Program-made: the position numbers and the translations under genes
Part shown: positions 11,339 to 63,605 of the stretch, piece after piece
Position numbering within the stretch: the first letter of the stretch is position 1
How the letters are laid out: the number at the start of each line of letters is the position of its first letter
Assembly (NCBI GenBank): GCA_951406725.2
Contig: OX597819.1
Coordinates: forward strand, 77,128,001 to 77,192,000
Source: Octopus vulgaris
Lineage: Eukaryota
Direction: 5' to 3'
DNA: 64,000 nt
Notes under the pieces: generated by a model
What the model was told of the DNA's origin: nothing
Database searches by the model: none
The model's input: only the letters and a program-made list of their open reading frames with translations

Positions 11339-11548
11339 TTAATCCTTTTGATACCAATGTGGCTGAAACTGCCTTTGGTTCTATAGTACAAATGCCTTCT
11401 TTTCGAAAGTTCTGAATTAAAATCTTTCACCAAACCTTAGTTCCTAACATTAGCTTAATCATAACTTATTTTGTTAAATTCTTTGTTATATTTAAAATTA
11501 ATTGAAAGAAACACAGTATCTCAACAGAAGTATGATAACAAAAGATTT
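11339..11548. mobile_element. piggyBac-like MITE, decayed, just upstream of the NCX exon
   Basis: Starts ttaatccttttgatacc; body is the reverse complement of the TTAA-flanked element at 54826-55052. Confidence 0.7.
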
Positions 11549-11611: not shown

Positions 11612-11709
11612 AAAATTTCTTCGCGTACGGGTATTTGATGATGAAGAATATGAAAAGAATGAAACTTTTTTCATTTGGCTAGATGAACCTTTCCTTGTGA
11701 AGAAACCAG
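11612..11709 (+). CDS. NCX: Internal exon of a Na+/Ca2+ exchanger (SLC8/NCX), Calx-beta/CBD2 segment equivalent to vertebrate NCX1 exon A
   Basis: Pyrimidine tract and acceptor ttctatcttctttcttacag (AG 11610-11611); donor CAG|gttagt. 98 nt = 1 + 32 codons + 1 (phase 2 to 1). Translates KFLRVRVFDDEEYEKNETFFIWLDEPFLVKKP, matching the NCX CBD2 pattern K-x-I/L-x-V-x-V-x-DDEEYEKN-x-TFF-x-x-x-x-EP-x-LV. Confidence 0.95.
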
Positions 11710-13716: not shown

Positions 13717-14573
13717 CAAGTGAAAATCAAATCAAATCAAATCAAAATAGATGAACATCAATGGAATTTGTATCTTGTGGTACCAGTGCCGGTGGCACAC
13801 AAGAAAACCATCCGAACGTGGCCGTAGCCAGTACCGCATCGACTGGCCTCCGTACTGTGGGCACGCAACAAACACCATCCGATCGTGGCCGTTCGCCAGC
13901 CTCATCTGGCACCTGTGTCGGTGGCACATAAAAACTCCATCCGAAGACCCGGCAAGACTAGTCAGGCCATAACCCGTGGCCCCTACCTGGGACGTAGTCA
14001 GTCCACCTGTGCATACCTTCCTTCTTGTGACACTTGTGAAGACCTGTTGAGGCAAGTGAAAATCAAATCAAATCAAAACAAATCAAAATAGATGAACATC
14101 AATGGAATTTGTATCTTTGTGGACCAGTGCCGGTGGTACACAAGAAAATCATCCGAACGTGGCCGTAGCCAGTACCGCATAGACTGGCCTCCGTGCTTTG
14201 GGGACGTAACAAACACCATCCGATCGTGGCCGTCCGCCAGCCTCATCTGGCACCTGTGTCGGTGGCACATAAAAACACCATCCGAGCGTGGCCGTCTGCC
14301 AGCCTCGTCTGGCACCTGTGTCGGTGGCACATAAAAACACCATCCGAGCGTGGCCGTTCGCCAGCCTCGTCTGGCACCTGTGTCGGTGGCACATAAAATC
14401 ACCCACTACACTCTCGGAGTGGTTGGCGTTAGGAAGGGCATCCAGCTGTAGAAACACTGCCACATCTGACTGGCCTGGTGCAGCCTTCGGGCTCCCCAGA
14501 CCCCAGTTGAACCGTCCAACCCATGCTAGCATGGAAAACGGACGCTAAATGATGATGATGATGATGATGATGA
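13717..14573 (+). mobile_element. Young RTE-type 3' fragment with a duplicated segment and ~60-bp internal tandem units
   Basis: GC/CpG-rich. 13717-13943 is repeated from ~14054. Unit ccatccgagcgtggccgt-cgccagcctcgtctggcacctgtgtcggtggcacataaaa; (GAT)n tail. Confidence 0.8.
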
Positions 14574-30593: not shown

Positions 30594-32288
30594 CTATAAA
30601 TTCATAAAATATAACAATAACTGTGGTTATTGCTTAGTTTCCAAGTAGAGTATCGTTAAGTTGACCTATGATCAAAAGTATTCAAGTTATGACCATCACA
30701 CCTTTTTGTCAGCAAGAGTGTTACCAAGTCTATAGTATCCAATGTGATATTTTATTAGAGTCGTGGAAGATTTAGTGGCTTGCCATGTTAAGTGACCACT
30801 TGAAGATTTCTTCATTGGCTCATGTCACAGATAGTTAAGTTATATGAGTTCTCTGACAATTGGCCTACAAGTTGACAGTTCCTAATATCATTACCATAGT
30901 AAAGAAACTTGCCAGTTAAGGATGCTCACATCACCAAGTTACAAGTAAATAACTAGTAGATAGTTAATGAACTGGACAAGGGTGTGAGACATTTTGCAGC
31001 TTGTAAGTTGTCATTAAGAGTTGTATAGTGTGGCTCTCCACAACCCATGGCAGCCTGCTGTATGTACCATAAACTTCGCATGATTTTCTCTATGACTGTG
31101 ATGAGCAAGTGACAGCACTTTAGAATTACTTTGTTGGTGTCATACAGAGTTCAGAGTCTCTCATGAGAAATTTTGCATTTTACCAGTAATAAATTGGACT
31201 CTTGTGGATTGAGATTGACTTGGAGCCAGAATTAAGCACTAGCCCAGTGAATCTTGGGTGTCTATGAAAGATTTCACTTATTGAAGTTTTTATAGAGTGA
31301 AAGAAGTAGATAGAGGAAGTAAAATTTAGCTTACTACATGAAGTTCAAATTCTCTCATGAGTAATACCTACAACATATTAGTATGCTGTTCAACTATTGA
31401 CATGTATCACTGTTTCTATGGAAACTTATATAGGCTCTAGCACACTACATCTAGTAACATAAGTAGATGAAAAAACAAAATATTTGGAAATGAGTTCTGA
31501 CTGCACAAAATAGATTTGAGTTCCGTCTCTTCTTTTTCTGGTGTACTCCTTTGATTGTAATCACAAAGTACTTATATTTCCTCAAGTTTAGATTTTATAA
31601 AGCCTTCAAGAAGTTTTTAATGTAGACCTATGATCCTACATTATTTTTGATGTGTCCTTTCTCTGTGTTTAAGAAAAGGGTGTGATTTGTTGCATATTTG
31701 TCTGCTATTTCTAGCAGGTTACACAACCACACATTTACTCTTAATTCTCCTTTAAAAGCCTGTCAGATTCAAAATTTGGTTGGTTAGACCAAATTTTGAA
31801 GGGGGATAGTATGGCTGGCTGAATTGACCCAGTCATATCTGGTATTTATTGAACCTAGAGAGATAAATAGCAAAATAAACTCCGTCAGAACATGAATTCA
31901 GATTGGAGAGGACAAAAAGAAATACAGTAAAACATTCTATCTAGAACTCAACTTTTTTTTTTTATTAATTCATGTCCCACTAGCTCAACAATTCAATTAG
32001 ATTACATTCCAGGCAACCACTAGGGCTAACTACTCATTATATTCTGTAGTGAACTATGTATTATTTTAACACCTGTCTACATAAGTAAATTTAGCTTGGT
32101 GATATTTTAGACAGCTCTTTTGCTGGCACTCGTGTGTTCTTGCCAAACTTTACCTTATGCAATGAAATTTTTCTATTAGTTTTTGTATCTTTCTAATTTA
32201 CACCCGAATCTCTTCATAATGGATGTTATTCTCTTTTGCTCGGTTTCTTTTCTTTTCTTTTCCTAACACCCTTTTGGCTTTCTTCCAG

Positions 32289-36360: not shown

Positions 36361-36735
36361 CATCATCATCATCGTTTAACGTCCGCTTTCCATGCTAGCA
36401 TGGGTTGGACAGTTCAACTGGGGTCTGGGAAGCCAGAAGGCTGCACCAAGCCCAGTCTGATCTGGCAGTGTTTCTACAGCTGGATGCCCTTCCTAACGCC
36501 AACCACTCCGTGAGTGTAGTGGGTGCTTTTTACATGCCACCGGCACAGGTGCCAGACGAGGCTGGCAAACGGCCATGATCGGATGGTGCTTTTTACGTGC
36601 CACCGGCATGGAGGCCAGTAGGGCGGCACTGGCTACGACCACTTTCGGATTGTTCTCTTACGTGCCACTGGCACTGGTATCACAGCTACAAATTCCATTG
36701 ATGTTGATCGATTACTATTTTGATTTCGATTTTAA
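36361..36735 (-). mobile_element. RTE-type 3'UTR fragment
   Basis: catcatcatcgtttaacgtccgctttccatgctagcatgggttggac...; reverse complement of 14070-14573. Confidence 0.85.
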
Positions 36736-39142
36736 AGGATTTAATTTGGTACTTAAGTTCAAATTCATTCAGAGTCAACATTTCTTTCATTTCATCTGGA
36801 GATTAAGGAGTAACATTTATTTACTGAGCTTTATTCAACTTTTCCATAAGATGATAATTTTCTTTTATTCCTAACTGAAACGAAATATCTATAAAAATGA
36901 ATAGGCATTACTAAGTTTTTTTTTTCTCATTTTTATCTTGATACATTTGTGTACTGTTTTTTTTTTTATTTAATTTTCAAATGTTGCACTTCAAAGTTAG
37001 TCTTTGGAAACAAAATTAGAACTTCAAATTAATTTTCTATAAATGAAAATAAATTAAAAGTAAGAACGTTTCTCACTTCTGATGCTTTCCTAGAATACAT
37101 TATCATATATACAGTATTAAGAATTTCTTTAAACTGTCCAACTGGGACAATTTACATATTAGCTTAATCAGATTCTTTTTTTTTTTTTTTTGTGATAAAT
37201 GATTTTTTTAAATTATGTTTTTGGCTTCTAATTATCAGTTGCAGCTTCCTTTTGAAGCAGGTGAGAAAATGAATTGAATTAGCAGTAATATCTTTTCACT
37301 TAATCACTTTGATTCCTATCTGTATCCTCCCATACATCATTCATTTCACTGTAGTTAGTTACTTATATTCGACTACGTATTGTTGCGCTTAGCATTGCAA
37401 CCAGTTATCTGCTCTTGTCTCTGTATCCTCCAATATGTTTTGGCCTTCTGCCTAGCTGTCTACACTCAAACAGATCTTGTTATACATATTCTCATTGGGT
37501 CAGCTCCGCTCACTTATCTAAATATTTTACTTGGCACGTTCATTAACATCAAAGTTCTTGCTTATTTCATATGTCTTAAAATATACTTCAAAACATTTGG
37601 GAATGTAAAAGGATGCAGTTATAGATGACTTACTGTGTGAAGATGAAAAGACAGTATCTTAATAAATCTTTACGATTGCTATTTATGAAATGCCCTGGAC
37701 TTGTTATTTGCATTGTGAAGAGGGAAGCTTAGCAGAAATGGTAGGGCAGAGTACCAAACTAAGTGACTTTACTGTATTTGGTTTGGTTCCTCTATGTTCT
37801 GAGTTCAAGTCCCTCTGGGGAGGGTCAGTAAAATAGACCCCCACACCCATAATACACTGCAAGTGGATTTAATGAGTTATACTATTCCTCGTTATTGTTC
37901 ACATTTAGTTTAATGTATGCGTTTCCATTTTTGTATCTGGGTCCCCCCTTCTTTTGTTTTAGATGTATAACTTAGAGGTGTATATATGTAGATCCCTCCC
38001 CACAAAGAGAGTGGTTGAACAACATCAGGGAATAAACAGGGGTAGTAAATAGTTAGTTAATTACAACAAAAGGTAAAGGATGGGGGGAGGCGTTACATCA
38101 CCCGATGTACCACCTACAGCCTCCTTCGGTTATGGGGCTATTGATTTGACTTAACTGATTGATTGATTTCCTGATTGATTGATCTGCGCATCTGAAGCAA
38201 GGCTTTCATTAATGAAATGTTTCTAACCATACGAATATTTCTTATTGATTAAAGCATGAAAATTCTCTGTATTAAATATTTTCCCCATGATTGAAATAGA
38301 TTGGTTGATTTTTTGATCATCTGGGTCCTTTGGAGATAAAAACAAATAATTGCCACTTTTTTTTTTCTTTCTTTCTTTATGAGATATAATTGTGTTTTTT
38401 TTTTTAACCTCAGTCACCTCTAATTAAGCCCACACAATCAAAAGTATTTCAACTGAAATGATACCATTTTCAGAATCAGACATTTTTCATTTTTGCTTTA
38501 GACATTGTTTTTATCACTACATTATCTGAAGTACCCTTCCTTGTATTTTTTTTTTTTTTTTTTTGTCAAAGGTGGCAGAGTGTGATTTGAGGAAAAGCTG
38601 AGTATTGCTGCTCAACCTAAGTAGGTTGAGCTAGCACACTCAAGCTCTCTTACTGGCTCATTTCTCGAGTTTGTTTGAAGATGGGTGGATGACTCTAGCA
38701 TTTCCAGAATCTGAAGGGGGAAGGGGAGTAATAGAAGTCAATAACTTTGGATTCTTGCTAATATGTGGTTGGGAAAAAAAATCTCTCTCTCTTCCTCCTC
38801 CTCCTTTCTCCCTCTCTCTCTCTCTCTCTCTCTCTGTTTTCCCCTCAAACACATTATATTGAAAACACAGCTGTTCAGTGTTTTTATGAATGATTTTTCA
38901 TAATTCCATATTCGTCCTTTATGTATAGTTTGGAGCAATAATGTCCCTATGCCCATTAATGTTCTCGACTATCTTCTGAGCAAGGTATGGAAAATAGTGA
39001 GTGGCATTTTTATTGCTGTATTTTTGTACTATCCAACAAGGATCATGGAAATGATGAAACTCATAAAATTACCACCATAATCATCATCATCATCATCATC
39101 TGTAATTTTTTGCTTTCCGGGTTGATTATAAAATCTTGCCTT

Positions 39143-40340: not shown

Positions 40341-41445
40341 ATCATCATCATTTTCATTTCTTCTGTATTGAAATAACCATTTTTCATTTGTGTAGACACA
40401 ATGTCATCATTGAAGAATAAAAAGAAAATGTGCTTCACCATCAATGCTGATAATAATTTGAATATTTTGCTTTTATTCAGAAAAAACTTACATAAAAATC
40501 ATCTGCTTCTTTTGTCAATTCCATAATATATTTTATAATGTCTTAATATTATTGCTGAGCTATTAATTTTTATCTATAGTAATGCTTGCAATTATTCCTT
40601 ATTTCTTGTTTCCTTAGATTTTCAAAGATGCTTTTGTTTTTTAATATTCAAAATATATTTTTCTTTTTGATTTTTAATGTTTTTTTTTTTTTGTTATACA
40701 TACAAAGATAGCAGATAATCAGGAATGGGAATGGTGACCCTTTTCTTTCTTTTTTTTTTTTTTTCTACCTGGTTATATTTTCCTGGTTCCAAATTCCCAA
40801 TTGATAAATCTGCAGGTGACGAGGATGGGTTTTCACATATAATGAACAGTAATAGGAGCAGAAAAATCTTGAATCAAATGTCTTTAAAAAAAAAAAAAAA
40901 GATGCAAAAACAAATTTTTTAATCTAATTCAACTGAAATTTAACTTTTTAATCAATAAAAGAATTTTCAAGGTTACGTTATCTTTCTTTCATTGATTTTT
41001 TTTTTTAATTCAGTTTAGAGAACCAATTCCACATCCCTCTTTCCACAGCTTCTATTGCTACCCAACCACTATCACAGTTCACCAATTATCAACTTTATAA
41101 AGGGTACTTGAAACAAGATTCCGAAAACTAATATACGCATTAATATACACACACGTAAACACCTATACATGAGTGAATGAACAATCACAAGGAAGTAGCA
41201 CTCAACACACTTAGTTGCAGTTACATGTATTATGTATGTGTGTCTGTGTGCCTGTGTGTATGTATGCATATACATCTACACATATATACATGTGTGAATA
41301 TATATCTCTATAAATAGTTATGTATGTACCCATACATATGTCTCAGTCTGTCTATATATATATATTTGTAAGTATAAATACATAACATTTTATTTTATTT
41401 TACTTTTTTATTTCATTTTGAATTGTTTATGCTTTGTTTTTATAG

Positions 41446-41466
41446 ATACTGACTCTGCCCACTCAG
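41446..41466 (+). CDS. NCX: Candidate 21-nt NCX microexon (DTDSAHS), phase 1 to 1
   Basis: U-rich AG-free zone of ~70 nt, TGC at 41430-41432, tttttatag acceptor, ATACTGACTCTGCCCACTCAG, donor CAG|gtaaat. Frame-preserving with no stop. Confidence 0.72.
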
Positions 41467-42678
41467 GTAAATGTGTGAAAAGCAGCTAGTGCTTAGATTT
41501 TTAGGTGTTTTGATTGTTAGAAGCAATGAGGCTGTTGGCTGGCAATCTTTGTTTAATTTCTTTTTCTATATTTTTTTTTTGTTTACTTTATTAGTATAAA
41601 ACCATGTAGTTTTTTTATTAGTGTGTGGCTGCATTAAAGATGAATAGTTGCCCGGCTCTTTTCACTTTTATAAGCATGTTTATATACGTGAAAAAAAAAT
41701 CTTGGGGTTTGACAATGTGGAAAAGCCTCTGCCTGGATTTTTTTACCTGTATTTTTTCCTTCCACTCCTTAGAGATTTCATTTATTTATTTATTTTTTCC
41801 AAAATTTCTTTGCAGTACAGGAAATTATTAGACTACTTACAATTAAAATATTTCCTTGTTTAGATTGAGGAATGCTAACTACAGCCCTGCATGATTTCTC
41901 AGCCCTTTCTCTCTCCAGTCTCTATCTTTCTCTCTCTCTCTTTTTTACACACACACACACACACTCTCTCTCTCTCTCTCTCTAGCAGAAATGAAATATT
42001 CCAATAGATCTGACATTTTACTAGTAGCTCATAGGCCTTTGGTGCTAATTCACATCAACAATATTTATTTGGACTTTTTGGTCAAGTGCTTAATCATACT
42101 TTATCCCACCTAGTTGTCAAGAACAGATGCCAGATTTTGTGGCATTGTTATCTCAGTTAGACTGGCATCTCATCATCATCATCATCATCATCATTGTCAT
42201 CCTCATTTCAACATGTACTTTACCATATTTAGATTTTTCTATGGCTGGATGCCCTTCCCATGTCAGCTGTTGCTTATTTCAAGACAAAGTAATAAATCTG
42301 TCAATCTATCAAACAGTAAACTACCTGGACATACATTTTACAAATGACCCTGTTTATAGGAATGGGGAAGCTTTTGTTCACAAACAGCTTGCAACATGTG
42401 AAGATGAGAGTAAATACAAATTCACTCGCAAACACACTCATGCACATAATCATCATTATTTAACATCCGTTTTTCCTTGCTGGCATGGGTTGGATGGCTT
42501 GACAGGCCAGGGCCCACACCAGGCTCCAAAGTCAGTTTTGGCTTGGTTCCTACAGCTGGATGACCTTCCTAATGCCAACCGCTTTACAAAGTGTACTAGG
42601 TGCTTTTTACACTGCACCAGCACCAGTGTTTTTTTTTCTTGTGGTACCTTGGTTTTAGGATCTCAATTCTGTTGTGGT

Positions 42679-42680
<2 letters not shown>

Positions 42681-42726
<46 letters not shown>

Positions 42727-42839
42727 TTGTATGTATGCATATATATATATATGTATTTGTATGTATATATATATATATGTGTTTGTATGTATATATATAT
42801 ATATATGTATTTGTATGTATATATATATATATATGTATG

Positions 42840-42870
<31 letters not shown>

Positions 42871-43338
42871 ATATATATATATATGTATATGCATATATAT
42901 ATATATATGTATATGTATGTATATATATATATATATATGTATTTGTATGTATATATGTATATATATATATATATATGTATTGATGTATATATATATATAT
43001 GTATATGCATGTATATATATATATATGTATATGCATGTATATATATATATATGTATATGCATGTATATATATATATATGTATATGCATGTATATATATAT
43101 ATATGTATATGCATGTATATATATATATATGTATATGCATGTATATATATATATATGTATATGCATGTATATATATATATGTATGTATATGTATGTATAT
43201 GCATGTATATATATATATGTATGTATATGTATGTATATGTATGTATATATATGTATATATATATATATATGTATATGTATGTATATATATATATGTATAT
43301 GTATGTATATACATATATATATGTATATACATACATAT
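42681..43338. repeat. Compound (TA)n/TATG array of ~660 bp with a 26-bp higher-order unit
   Basis: Visible directly; TGCATG recurs at 43006, 43032, 43058, 43084, 43110, 43136, 43162 and 43200. Confidence 0.95.
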
Positions 43339-44809
43339 TTTCTTTAGTTTCTGTCTACCAATTTCAGTCAAGGTATTGATCAACCCACAGTTAAAGTAGA
43401 GAACACCAGTTTGTCAATGTCCATGCAGTTGCCTGAAGCCCAAGCAGATCTTGGGGCTCAATTATGGTCTATGTATTCTGTCAAATTAATAAACATTATG
43501 GGCCCAGTACATTGATTTACCTGGGGGCCTATAATAATGCATAGGAAAACCCTGCTGTAGACAGTGTCAACTTGGCTATATAATTTCAAAGTAAATTCTT
43601 AACAACACAGCTCATGCCAGGGGGTAAATTTTTCTTCTTTTGATTCCATAACACAAGAAAACAGGAGACAAGCGCACATAAATGCATGGAGGAACCTTTA
43701 TATGTAAAAGCCCTCCCAAAGTGGTTCGTTGACTCACTAGAAATAGCAGCCAACTTTCCTTCAAAGCATCCCAGACTGACTTTAAGAAAGGACAGGCACA
43801 CTGGATAATATGCCTTTTAGTGCTGTCTGAAATAAAACATAGAATGGTTGTAGCTTGAACACCTTTTGTTATACTTTATCTCTTCAATCAAGACTGGGAA
43901 GAAGTTAAGCAATACATGTATCATCCACAAGCATCCATACATACACAAATGTGCATACACTCGCACACATGCACCATATACATTCAAATATATATCTGTG
44001 TATGTATGTACACACATACACACTCACCCCCCCCCCCACACACACACACACATAAATACACATATGATAAAATAGCATTCAAGTACTTAAGTACTTAAAT
44101 CTATCTTAATGTGTTGGAGCACAGTTGTATACTGAAGATATTTTTATCAGATGATTTTAAGCAGGTGATTTGGGGAAAGAATATTTGTACGCAATCAGAA
44201 AAAAATAAAACCGTCTTACTTGCACTCCAAAATACTCAAGGTGTTTCAGTGTTAATATATATGTACACATGTGTGTGTATACACACACACATACACACAT
44301 ATATCTCATGAATATTTTACAACTAGTCAATGTCCAGTCTCATTGTGTAACCCCAGGTCAGCCAAAGTATAGCTTGACCCATGATGAAATATATTCTGGC
44401 TGTCTATCTTTTTAAGGATCTAAAGGACAACATACACAAGCTAGGAGCATTTATCCACTGAGGCCTTTGCTTTTGTAAAAATTACAAAGTGTGATTTGAG
44501 GGAAATTTGGCTGCAATTTTAACAATTTACATGAGTGCAAAGAAGTAAAATATCCATTAAAGAATTCTACGACAGTTAAGTTCTACTAAAGATTGAAAGG
44601 CATATGTGTGTATAAATGCTTTTCAACAACATTTATATTTAAAAGATATTTAATCTTGCAGTTATTTTAGAGTTAAAACTAAAAATAGATGAGGAAGAGC
44701 TGGCAATAAGAATTTAAGAATCTTGTCAAGATTTCTTCTATCAAGTCTCTTTAACCATAGTCAATTTTTCTCCAGGTTTGTTGTATATAACTAACCAGTG
44801 ATTCACTAT

Positions 44810-47818: not shown

Positions 47819-48106
47819 GTATCTTTCAATTTCTTTTTTCTTTTTTTTTTACCTTTTTTTTTTAATCAATATTTAAAATTTGCCTTCTCTTTAAAATGCA
47901 CGTCTGTTAAATTTGCAGATACTTCTTTATGCTATTTTAGTTTCACTTCTTGTCTGTGTCACATTAACCCTATTATTGTTGATGTTTTTGTAGCTGTAGT
48001 ATATTTACAGTTATTTTTGTTTGTTGTTTTCTCCTCTGTAAAAATGTATTTCATTCTTTTTTCTTCAGTTGATTTTAAAATTTGTGATCATCATCATCAT
48101 CATCAT

Positions 48107-48418
48107 GTATATATATATGTATGTATGTATATATATGTATGTATGTATATATGTATGTATGTATGTATATATGTATGTATGTATATATATATGTATGTAT
48201 GTATATATGTATGTATGTATGTATATATGTATGTATATATATATGTATGTATATATGTGTGTATGTATATGTATGTATGTATATATGTGTGTATGTATAT
48301 GTATGTATGTATATATGTATGTATATATATATGTATGTATATATGTGTGTATGTATATGTATGTATATATGTATGTATGTATATATGTATGTATGTATAT
48401 ATGTATGTATGTATAAAT

Positions 48419-48457
<39 letters not shown>

Positions 48458-48492
48458 AATATGTATATATATATATATGTATGTATATATAA

Positions 48493-48529
<37 letters not shown>

Positions 48530-48971
48530 TGTATATATATATGTGTATATATATATGTGTATATGTATATATATGTATATATATGTATATATATATATGT
48601 ATATATATGTATATATATGTATATATATATATATATGTATGTATATATGTATATATATATATATGTATGTATATATGTATATATATATATATATGTATGT
48701 ATATATGTATATATATATATATGTATGTATATATATATATATATGTATGTATATATGTATATATATATATATGTATGTATATATATATATATATGTATGT
48801 ATATATGTATATATATATATATATGTATGTATATATGTATATATATATATATATGTATGTATATATGTATATATATATATATGTATGTATATATGTATAT
48901 ATATATATATATGTATGTATATATGTATATATATATATATGTATGTATATATGTATATATATATATGTATG

Positions 48972-49004
<33 letters not shown>

Positions 49005-49079
49005 ATATGTATGTATATATGTATATATATATATATGTATGTATATATGTATATATATATATGTATGTATGTATATATG

Positions 49080-49110
<31 letters not shown>

Positions 49111-49143
49111 ATATATATGTATGTATATATGTATGTATATATG

Positions 49144-49176
<33 letters not shown>

Positions 49177-49641
49177 GTATGTATATATGTATATATATAT
49201 GTATATATATATGTATATATATATATATGTATGTATATATGTATATATATATGTATGTATATATGTATATATATATGTATGTATATATGTATATATATAT
49301 GTATGTATATATGTATATATATATGTATGTATATATGTATATATATATGTATGTATATATGTATGTATATATGTATGTATATATGTATGTATATATGTAT
49401 ATATATATGTATGTATATATGTATATATATATATGTATGTATATATGTATATATATATGTATGTATATATGTATATATATATGTATGTATATATATGTAT
49501 ATATATGTATGTATATATATGTATATATATGTATGTATATATATGTATATATATGTATGTATATATATGTATATATATGTATGTATATATGTATATATAT
49601 ATGTATGTATATATATGTATATATATGTATGTATATATATG

Positions 49642-49707
<66 letters not shown>

Positions 49708-49709
49708 TG

Positions 49710-49754
<45 letters not shown>

Positions 49755-49853
49755 GTATATATATATATGTATGTATATGTATATATATATATATGTATAT
49801 ATATGTATATATATGTATGTATATATATGTATATATATGTATGTATATATATG

Positions 49854-49890
<37 letters not shown>

Positions 49891-50013
49891 GTATATATAT
49901 GTATGTATATATATATATGTATGTATATGTATATATATATATATGTATATATATGTATATATATGTATGTATATATATATATGTATGTATATGTATATAT
50001 ATGTATGTATATG

Positions 50014-50050
<37 letters not shown>

Positions 50051-50337
50051 GTATATATATGTATGTATATATATGTATATATATATGTGTATATATGTGT
50101 ATATATATGTATGTATATATATATGTATATATATATGTATATATATATGTATATATATATGTATGTATATATATGTATATATATGTATATATATGTATAT
50201 ATATATGTATATATATGTATATATATATGTATATATATGTATATATATATGTATATATATGTGTATGTATATATATGTATATATATATGTATGTATATAT
50301 ATGTATATATATATATGTATATATATGTATATATATG

Positions 50338-50374
<37 letters not shown>

Positions 50375-50763
50375 GTATGTATGTATATATGTATGTATAT
50401 ATGTATGTATATATATATATATATGTATGTATATATGTATATATGTATGTATATATATATATATATGTATGTATATATATATATATATATGTATGTATAT
50501 ATATATATATATATATGTATGTATATATATATATATATGTATGTATATATATATATATATATATGTATGTATATATATATATATATGTATGTATATATAT
50601 ATATATATATGTATGTATATATATATATATATATATGTATGTATATATATATATATATGTATGTATATATATATATATGTATGTATGTATATATATATAT
50701 GTATGTATATATGTATATATATATATATGTATATATGTATATATATATATATGTATGTATATA

Positions 50764-50796
<33 letters not shown>

Positions 50797-50843
50797 ATAT
50801 ATATATATGTATGTATATATGTATATATATATATATGTATGTA

Positions 50844-50896
<53 letters not shown>

Positions 50897-50921
50897 ATAT
50901 ATATATATGTATGTATATATG

Positions 50922-50972
<51 letters not shown>

Positions 50973-51044
50973 GTATGTATATATGTATATATATATGTAT
51001 GTATATATGTATATATATATGTATGTATATATGTATATATATAT
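48107..51044. repeat. Giant compound (TA)n/(TATG)n array, ~2.9 kb
   Basis: Almost pure pyrimidine-purine alternation with essentially no C on the + strand. Source of the 850-1009 aa Y/I/M/V/C pseudo-ORFs. Confidence 0.98.
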
Positions 51045-51529
51045 GAATGGTAAAAACAGATACTTTGGTTTGTTTGTTTTTATCTGATTACGGTTAGTTA
51101 AATTTAATACATCCTCTTTGCTTTAATAGACATCTGATTCAAAATATTTTATGCATATTGTTTTGTTGGGATTTTCTACATTTTAAAAGGCTCTAAGCTA
51201 TAGGTCTATTTACAAACAAACATAGCTGAAGTCAAGGTTTTACGATATCTGAATCCTTAAAATAATGCATCCTACTTTTAAAATTCTATCATTAGTATTG
51301 CAAATCTACTTGTTCTTGTAACAGACAGTATTTTGATTTCCTCAGTTGTAAATTCAATGGTCACCTCAAAAAACTTAGTTTCCTGCATTAAAGCATATTC
51401 CTCTCTTAAATGGCACATCTGCCTTGCATATATTTTCCCCTCAGCAGTTGTTCCTCAAAAGTTCAAACCAGACATTACTTCAGTTCCTGACTCACTTTTG
51501 GCATCTGAGTGGTCATGGAGAACAACTTC

Positions 51530-58635: not shown

Positions 58636-58806
58636 GTTCTATATCACACTATTTTGAAGAATGTGATGCCAGCTGTTTTCTGGATGAGACAAATGTCTCG
58701 GTACATTCTGGGACACCCTACTCAAATATGATTCCTCTTATCGAAAGACAGAATTTTGGCAGTTCTACATCTGCAAGCAATGAACCCATACGACACCGTA
58801 TGTCAG
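58636..58806 (+). CDS. NCX: Candidate 171-nt NCX cassette exon, phase 1 to 1 (alternative acceptor gives 58616-58806, phase 2 to 1)
   Basis: Acceptor tatttttag at 58634-58635, donor CAG|gtcagt. Open frame GSISHYFEECDASCFLDETNVSVHSGTPYSNMIPLIERQNFGSSTSASNEPIRHRMS. Non-repetitive, GC-richer than its flanks, and in the phase required after the 11612-11709 exon. Confidence 0.55.
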
Positions 58807-62937: not shown

Positions 62938-63335
62938 ATTGGGTAAGTATCTTCCACTATAGCCTTGGGGCAACCAAAGCCTTGTGTGTGGGTTTGGTAG
63001 ATGGAAATTGAAAGAAGCCTGTCATCATCATCATCATCATCATCATCGTTTAACGTCCGTTCTCCATGCTAGCATGGGTTGGACGGTTCGACTGGGGATC
63101 TGGGAAGCCAGAAGGCTGCACCAGGCTCCAGTCTTATCTGGCAATGTTTCTACAGCTGGATGCCCTTCCTAACGCCAACCACTCCGTGAGTGTAGTGGGT
63201 GCTTTTTACGTGCCACCTGCACAGGTGCCAGGCAAGGCTGGCAACGGCCACGGTCGGATTGGTGTATTTTATGTGCCACCGGCACGGAAGCCAGTCGAGG
63301 CGGTGCTGGCATCAGCCACGAGTCGGCCACGAGTC

Positions 63336-63373
<38 letters not shown>

Positions 63374-63605
63374 TTATGTGAGTGTGTCTTTATGCCTGTG
63401 TTTGTCCCCCCCACCATCACTTGATAACCAATGTTGGTGTATTTATGTCCCCATAACTTAGCAGTTTGGCAAAAGAGTCCAATAGAATAAGTACTAGGCT
63501 TACAAAGAATAAGTCTCGGGGTTGATTTCTTCGACTAAAGAAAAGACCCTATAAGATTGTGCTCCAGCATGGCTGCAGTCAAATGACTGAAACAACTAAA
63601 AGAGT
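62938..63605 (+). mobile_element. SINE family A interrupted by a minus-strand RTE 3'UTR fragment (63023-63330)
   Basis: Family A stops at gaaagaagcctgtc and resumes at its central microsatellite near 63335. Confidence 0.8.

Follow-up and report, generated by a model that had tools for sequence, protein, structure and literature searches.

An optional 21-nt exon that follows exon A of an octopus NCX gene and extends the CBD2 F-G loop

The NCX gene of Octopus vulgaris contains a real, in-frame, alternatively included 21-nt exon directly after exon A, at positions 41446-41466 of the window. We favour, with some reserve, the reading that this optional exon likely tunes calcium regulation of the exchanger and is probably not restricted to neurons. 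The window is the whole stretch of DNA that was analysed, 64,000 nt of contig OX597819.1 (assembly GCA_951406725.2, positions 77,128,001 to 77,192,000 of the forward strand). The exon belongs to the known class of NCX F-G-loop cassettes and was already present in automatic gene models. The features on which the argument turns are these:

11612-11709, forward strand: upstream NCX exon of 98 nt, homologous to vertebrate NCX1 exon A (CBD2 strands E-F), from PDB sequence matches to 3us9, 8sgi and 2fwu and coinciding contig boundaries.
41373-41445, forward strand: 3′ splice site with an AG-free, U-rich zone, a branch-like near-match TAAC at 41383-41386 and the acceptor AG at 41444-41445.
41430-41432, forward strand: TGC (UGC) motif, −16 to −14 from the exon, a candidate regulatory element.
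41446-41466, forward strand: 21-nt cassette microexon, phase 1-1, encoding DTDSAHS, from spliced junctions in runs X2, X5 and X7, the peptide in proteins P0004, P0006 and P0007, and a frame check.
41467-41472, forward strand: 5′ splice site GTAAAT (donor G/GTAAAT), with downstream junctions in spliced contigs.

Calx-beta and Na_Ca_ex domains (Pfam PF03160, PF01699 and PF16494) and PDB matches to NCX1 identify the host gene as an NCX (SLC8), and exon A matches octopus NCX proteins at 97-100%. A genome search with protein P0017 mapped the gene on G000:C6. Its 1.75-kb first coding exon lies ∼214 kb upstream and is followed in order by exon A, three optional exons and the constitutive 3′ exons. 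Three more NCX-like paralogues, with ∼50-59% identity, are found at G000:C4:33.38-33.44 Mb, C5:50.9-51.1 Mb and C12:35.0-35.15 Mb. Just 5′ of exon A, at window positions 11462-11544, sits a high-copy repeat fragment that was matched by many contigs in all four runs checked there.

Splice junctions were read from the assembled contigs of six of 24 runs, which come from six different studies and carry no tissue labels. There is one contig path per run across exon A; inclusion here denotes presence, not level, and contigs drop rare forms. By this measure the microexon is included in three of the six runs (X2, X5 and X7) and skipped in the other three (X1, X16 and X19). The contigs that cross exon A join exon 1 sequence upstream and are therefore spliced. 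Those of X5 and X7 run from exon A through the microexon to the constitutive exon, and the X2 contig runs from exon A through the microexon to a 171-nt cassette at 58636. The first-pass annotation had proposed a specific junction for this exon; a search recovered it in the contigs of X2, X5 and X7.

The sequence features described in that annotation were likewise borne out. The long U-rich, AG-free zone spans 71 nt (41373-41443), with a T fraction of 0.60 overall and 0.70 in the last 50 nt. The TGC placed ∼15 nt upstream of the acceptor occupies 41430-41432 (−16 to −14), and the frame-preserving 21-nt exon encoding DTDSAHS is in phase 1 and ends at a good donor (G/GTAAAT). When both strands of the window were scanned for microexons with loose criteria, two candidates appeared on the forward strand and none on the reverse, 41446-41466 being the stronger. 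A strict signature, with thresholds set after the microexon site had been seen and so tuned on 41446-41466, occurs once in the window; it is absent from the reverse strand and from 156 kb of other loci, and appears in none of 100 block-shuffled windows. A DNA search with the 103-nt stretch gave the self-match and one weak T-rich match only.

The same annotation had proposed a seven-residue insert in CBD2 encoded by an unannotated exon. The insert stands: it is frame-preserving and alternatively spliced, uses the predicted junction, and its peptide is kept across octopods and decapodiforms. The word ‘unannotated’ was wrong, as the microexon is present in XP_036359787.1, XP_029637256.1, CAI9724447.1, XP_052824690.1/691.1 and CAE1255968.1. 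Public models of three Octopus species and one cuttlefish carry it, with skip isoforms alongside. The octopus carriers are O. sinensis isoforms X1-X4, O. vulgaris CAI9724447.1 and, with the variant DTESAHS, O. bimaculoides. In S. pharaonis the peptide reads DTDSTHS, and in decapodiform clusters it is either DTDSTHS or DSESTHS. Include and skip isoforms are paired in O. sinensis, O. bimaculoides, S. pharaonis and two decapodiform clusters; in one decapodiform cluster the exact include protein is found on 41 contigs and the exact skip protein on 42. Positions 1, 4, 6 and 7 are invariant among the peptide variants DTDSAHS, DTESAHS, DTDSTHS and DSESTHS. The insert is absent from the single Argonauta protein and the single Doryteuthis protein found, and a search for shorter cephalopod proteins returned no loliginid isoform that carries it. 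Literature searches, with subscription journals mostly outside their scope, found no published description of this octopus NCX microexon. Neither NCX nor SLC8A is mentioned in the accessible main text of a study of tissue-specific exons in O. bimaculoides (10.64898/2026.09.05.749416), nor is the exchanger in the accessible portion of PMC10370119.

Outside the cephalopods, the exon A junction carries other small cassettes (4-15 residues) in scallops, mussels, oysters, clams and abalone, which often have further ones at a later point of the loop before the acidic stretch. One protein, P0038, which groups with caenogastropods (SH-aLRT 99 in a quick tree), has DTDSANS directly after exon A. It matches the octopus peptide at six of seven residues at the junction, where the next best among 105 distinct non-cephalopod loops matches at four of seven; a composition-only estimate puts the chance of such a match at 6 × 10−5 to 8 × 10−4. 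This single sequence, known as a protein alone, hints that the microexon may be older than cephalopods.

Structure prediction places the microexon residues at the start of a predicted disordered CBD2 F-G loop, after exon A. AlphaFold models P0004 with a mean pLDDT of 68.9; residues 611-636 have pLDDT < 50 and form a coil between a strand (597-609) and a helix (634-639). Alignments put the insert at the variable pentapeptide of CALX1.1/1.2 and at the junction between exon A and the cassettes of NCX1. The accessible part of PMC9820601 describes NCX1 cassettes C-F as lying in an unfolded F-G loop near the CBD1 sites, where they raise affinity and slow calcium release; it also reports that the five variable CALX residues alter regulation, and that the heart form of NCX1 is ACDEF and the brain form AD. 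We propose that the optional exon, by adding seven residues to the CBD2 F-G loop, likely tunes the response of the exchanger to regulatory calcium. By analogy with NCX1 cassettes C-F, lengthening the loop next to the interface between CBD1 and CBD2 would alter how tightly the CBD1 sensor binds calcium and how fast it releases it. The microexon would neither add nor remove a calcium site, because the exon A residues are unchanged. More tentatively, the heart and brain forms of NCX1 suggest by analogy that inclusion may be regulated by tissue or stage, either outside the nervous system or not limited to it. A literature search found no functional measurement on any cephalopod NCX isoform pair.

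Vertebrate NCX1 (SLC8A1) offers a close positional parallel. Its cassettes C-F occupy the same site, the CBD2 F-G loop after exon A, and are small, in-frame, optional exons used in combination (accessible part of PMC2217150). However, the octopus segment has no sequence identity to exons C-F in the alignments to 3us9 and 8jp0, and the 8sgi alignment breaks across it, although short disordered segments may lose such likeness. Exons C-F are also far smaller than the three 57-64-residue cassettes of the octopus loop. A tblastn search of the octopus window found no counterpart of NCX1 exon B, the 214-kb first intron being outside the detailed scan. In Drosophila, the five residues that vary between CALX1.1 and CALX1.2 align with the octopus insert site (3rb5/3rb7), but CALX swaps five residues for five whereas the octopus exon is present or absent. 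Moreover, CALX CBD2 binds no calcium according to the accessible part of PMC9820601, whereas the acidic motif of NCX1 exon A is retained in its octopus counterpart. The squid exchanger NCX-SQ1 (Doryteuthis opalescens) is an orthologue, 82% identical in alignment and with the same exon A; it lacks the insert, and according to the accessible part of PMC2217150 neither optic lobe nor stellate ganglion yielded splice variants.

Against this reading of a regulatory exon that is probably not confined to neurons stands a proposal already made in the first-pass annotation: in neurons, the eMIC domain of Srrm234 would act through the UGC at −16 to activate the microexon, which would give these cells an NCX isoform of their own. 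We judge it unlikely, though it deserves real weight. The exon resembles the microexons activated by eMIC proteins (SRRM3/4, Srrm234) in its length of 21 nt, its preserved frame, its 71-nt AG-free zone, the UGC at −16 near the acceptor and its good donor. The regulator is present in the genome, in that two in-frame exons of a Srrm234 gene on G000:C25 cover Pfam SRRM_C (PF15230; profile positions 14-55 and 57-67), which we take to be the eMIC domain. These 3′ exons, at L010:496-629 and L012 from about 4783 (G000:C25:37317.5-37341.8 kb), lie ∼24 kb apart. Long AG-free zones and UGC are among the eMIC features listed in the accessible part of PMC8797185, and UGC accompanies 74-79% of SRRM3/4 microexons in the available part of 10.1101/2024.09.17.613571, against a background of 19% here, a roughly fourfold likelihood ratio.

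The cis cues nevertheless discriminate poorly, because TGC occurs within −25 to −4 at 49 of 259 (19%) T-rich, AG-free YAG sites in the scanned DNA and long AG-free zones also precede constitutive exons. At six constitutive acceptors of the NCX gene the AG-free zone is 43-110 nt long, and two of the six have TGC within −25 to −4. No TCT or CTC occurs within 50 nt upstream of the TGC, where the tract is U/A only and not UCUC-rich, and the bipartite UCU/CUC-UGC enhancer is therefore absent. Likewise, no match to the [CT]T[AG]A[CT] branch pattern (CUAAY) is found within −90 to −10, just the near-match TAAC. The squid neural cDNAs also skip the insert: NCX-SQ1, cloned from stellate ganglion, lacks it, and no other isoform was among nine clones obtained by RT-PCR from that ganglion and the optic lobe (accessible part of PMC2217150), a comparison that uses another species and nine clones and presumes that the squid gene has the exon and that the RT-PCR primers flank its position. 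We regard neuron-enriched, eMIC-activated inclusion of the microexon as doubtful.

The exon could also be real but functionally neutral, with a disordered loop tolerating small exons and inclusion amounting to unregulated noise. The predicted disorder of the loop would allow this, and the unrelated 4-15-residue cassettes in the same intron of other molluscs point to fast turnover. However, six of the seven microexon residues are kept between octopods and cuttlefish despite the divergence of the flanking loop, and a run can have either the include or the skip form as its sole assembled path, a pattern not expected of low-level noise. We consider neutrality very improbable. Finally, a chance splice-like motif in an AT-rich intron would be unsurprising given that such introns are rich in T-rich, AG-free sites (259 in the scanned DNA), but junctions on both sides of the exon in three runs and the peptide in proteins of several species refute this.

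The preferred reading, an optional exon likely to tune calcium regulation, bears on the squid exchanger, a classic model for the regulation of NCX, for which the cloning paper found no splice variants according to its accessible part (PMC2217150). The regulatory loop that is spliced in vertebrates and flies is spliced in coleoids too, with exons of their own, and the coleoid isoform pairs could test the effect of loop length alone on calcium regulation. If inclusion were neural and eMIC-driven, the exon would be a concrete mollusc target of the eMIC program; if it were non-neural despite its UGC, it would be a caution that motifs by themselves do not suffice to call a neural microexon.

Further optional or candidate exons map to the same loop:

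58636-58806, forward strand: 171-nt optional exon, the first of three related cassettes, from P0017, P0018 and P0002, and joined to the microexon in run X2.
L003:5201-5392 (G000:C6:77197201-77197392) and L004:208-390 (G000:C6:77202207-77202389): second and third related cassettes, 192 and 183 nt.
31715-31717, forward strand: candidate 1 for a 3-nt (Ala) exon, with a TAG acceptor, two TGC upstream and a weak donor.
37258-37260, forward strand: candidate 2 for the 3-nt (Ala) exon, with an AAG acceptor, TGC at −18 and a good donor.

The F-G loop gains 182 Ser-rich residues when the three cassettes (57, 64 and 61 aa; 171, 192 and 183 nt) are all included. Each starts with G-[ST]-[IM]-S, all have a GTCAG donor, and among the proteins fetched they were found in Octopus proteins only. 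In pairwise comparisons of the three, 6, 21 and 0 of 1000 shuffles scored at least as high, and the resemblance is consistent with tandem duplication.

Isoforms of O. sinensis differ by one Ala after exon A, with or without the microexon next. Since this Ala precedes two different acceptors, a 3-nt exon is required. A NAGNAG acceptor or a shifted donor was rejected as its source, because the Ala precedes two different acceptors and no GT lies three bases beyond exon A. Both candidates are AG-CAG-GT sites in the 29.7-kb intron, and to judge from this arrangement either could also be a zero-length recursive splice point. The 3-nt Ala exon appeared in the contigs of none of the six runs, contigs being prone to drop rare forms. 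In decapodiforms the corresponding residue seems to be a Thr that is part of exon A itself, judging from the read-through protein P0005. Similarly, an optional Glu later in the loop, before the acidic stretch, has a candidate 3-nt exon at L005:8497-8499 (G000:C6:77220496-77220498) with a strong acceptor and donor. Squid NCX-SQ1 includes this Glu and skips the 21-nt insert.

A D-x-x-S-x-x-S-x-x-S spacing spans the microexon and the next exon. This spacing resembles that of a CK1 phosphorylation relay and is a putative one. One could go further and picture a splice dial in coleoid NCX of which the microexon is the most ancient part, older than the cephalopod-gastropod split (as the caenogastropod DTDSANS would suggest). 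The D-x-x-S-x-x-S-x-x-S phosphorylation relay, the 3-nt exons (AG-CAG-GT, possible recursive splice points) and the triplicated 182-residue block would then set the kinetics of calcium extrusion by tissue. We offer this composite as a long shot.

Several minor observations concern the surrounding DNA. An exon-like short frame at about L006:8177-8245 (near G000:C6:77230180) ends in a stop and matches the C-terminus of O. bimaculoides isoforms X2/X3; it would give an NCX without the last transmembrane half, or be an annotation artefact. Several window segments (13730-14550, 36380-36620 and 63050-63420), whose translations resemble each other on both strands, are copies of an interspersed repeat family, probably an octopus SINE-like element. 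In the intron 3′ of the microexon, long (TA/TG)n microsatellite tracts at 42600-43400 and 48100-51090 are a source of spurious long open frames.
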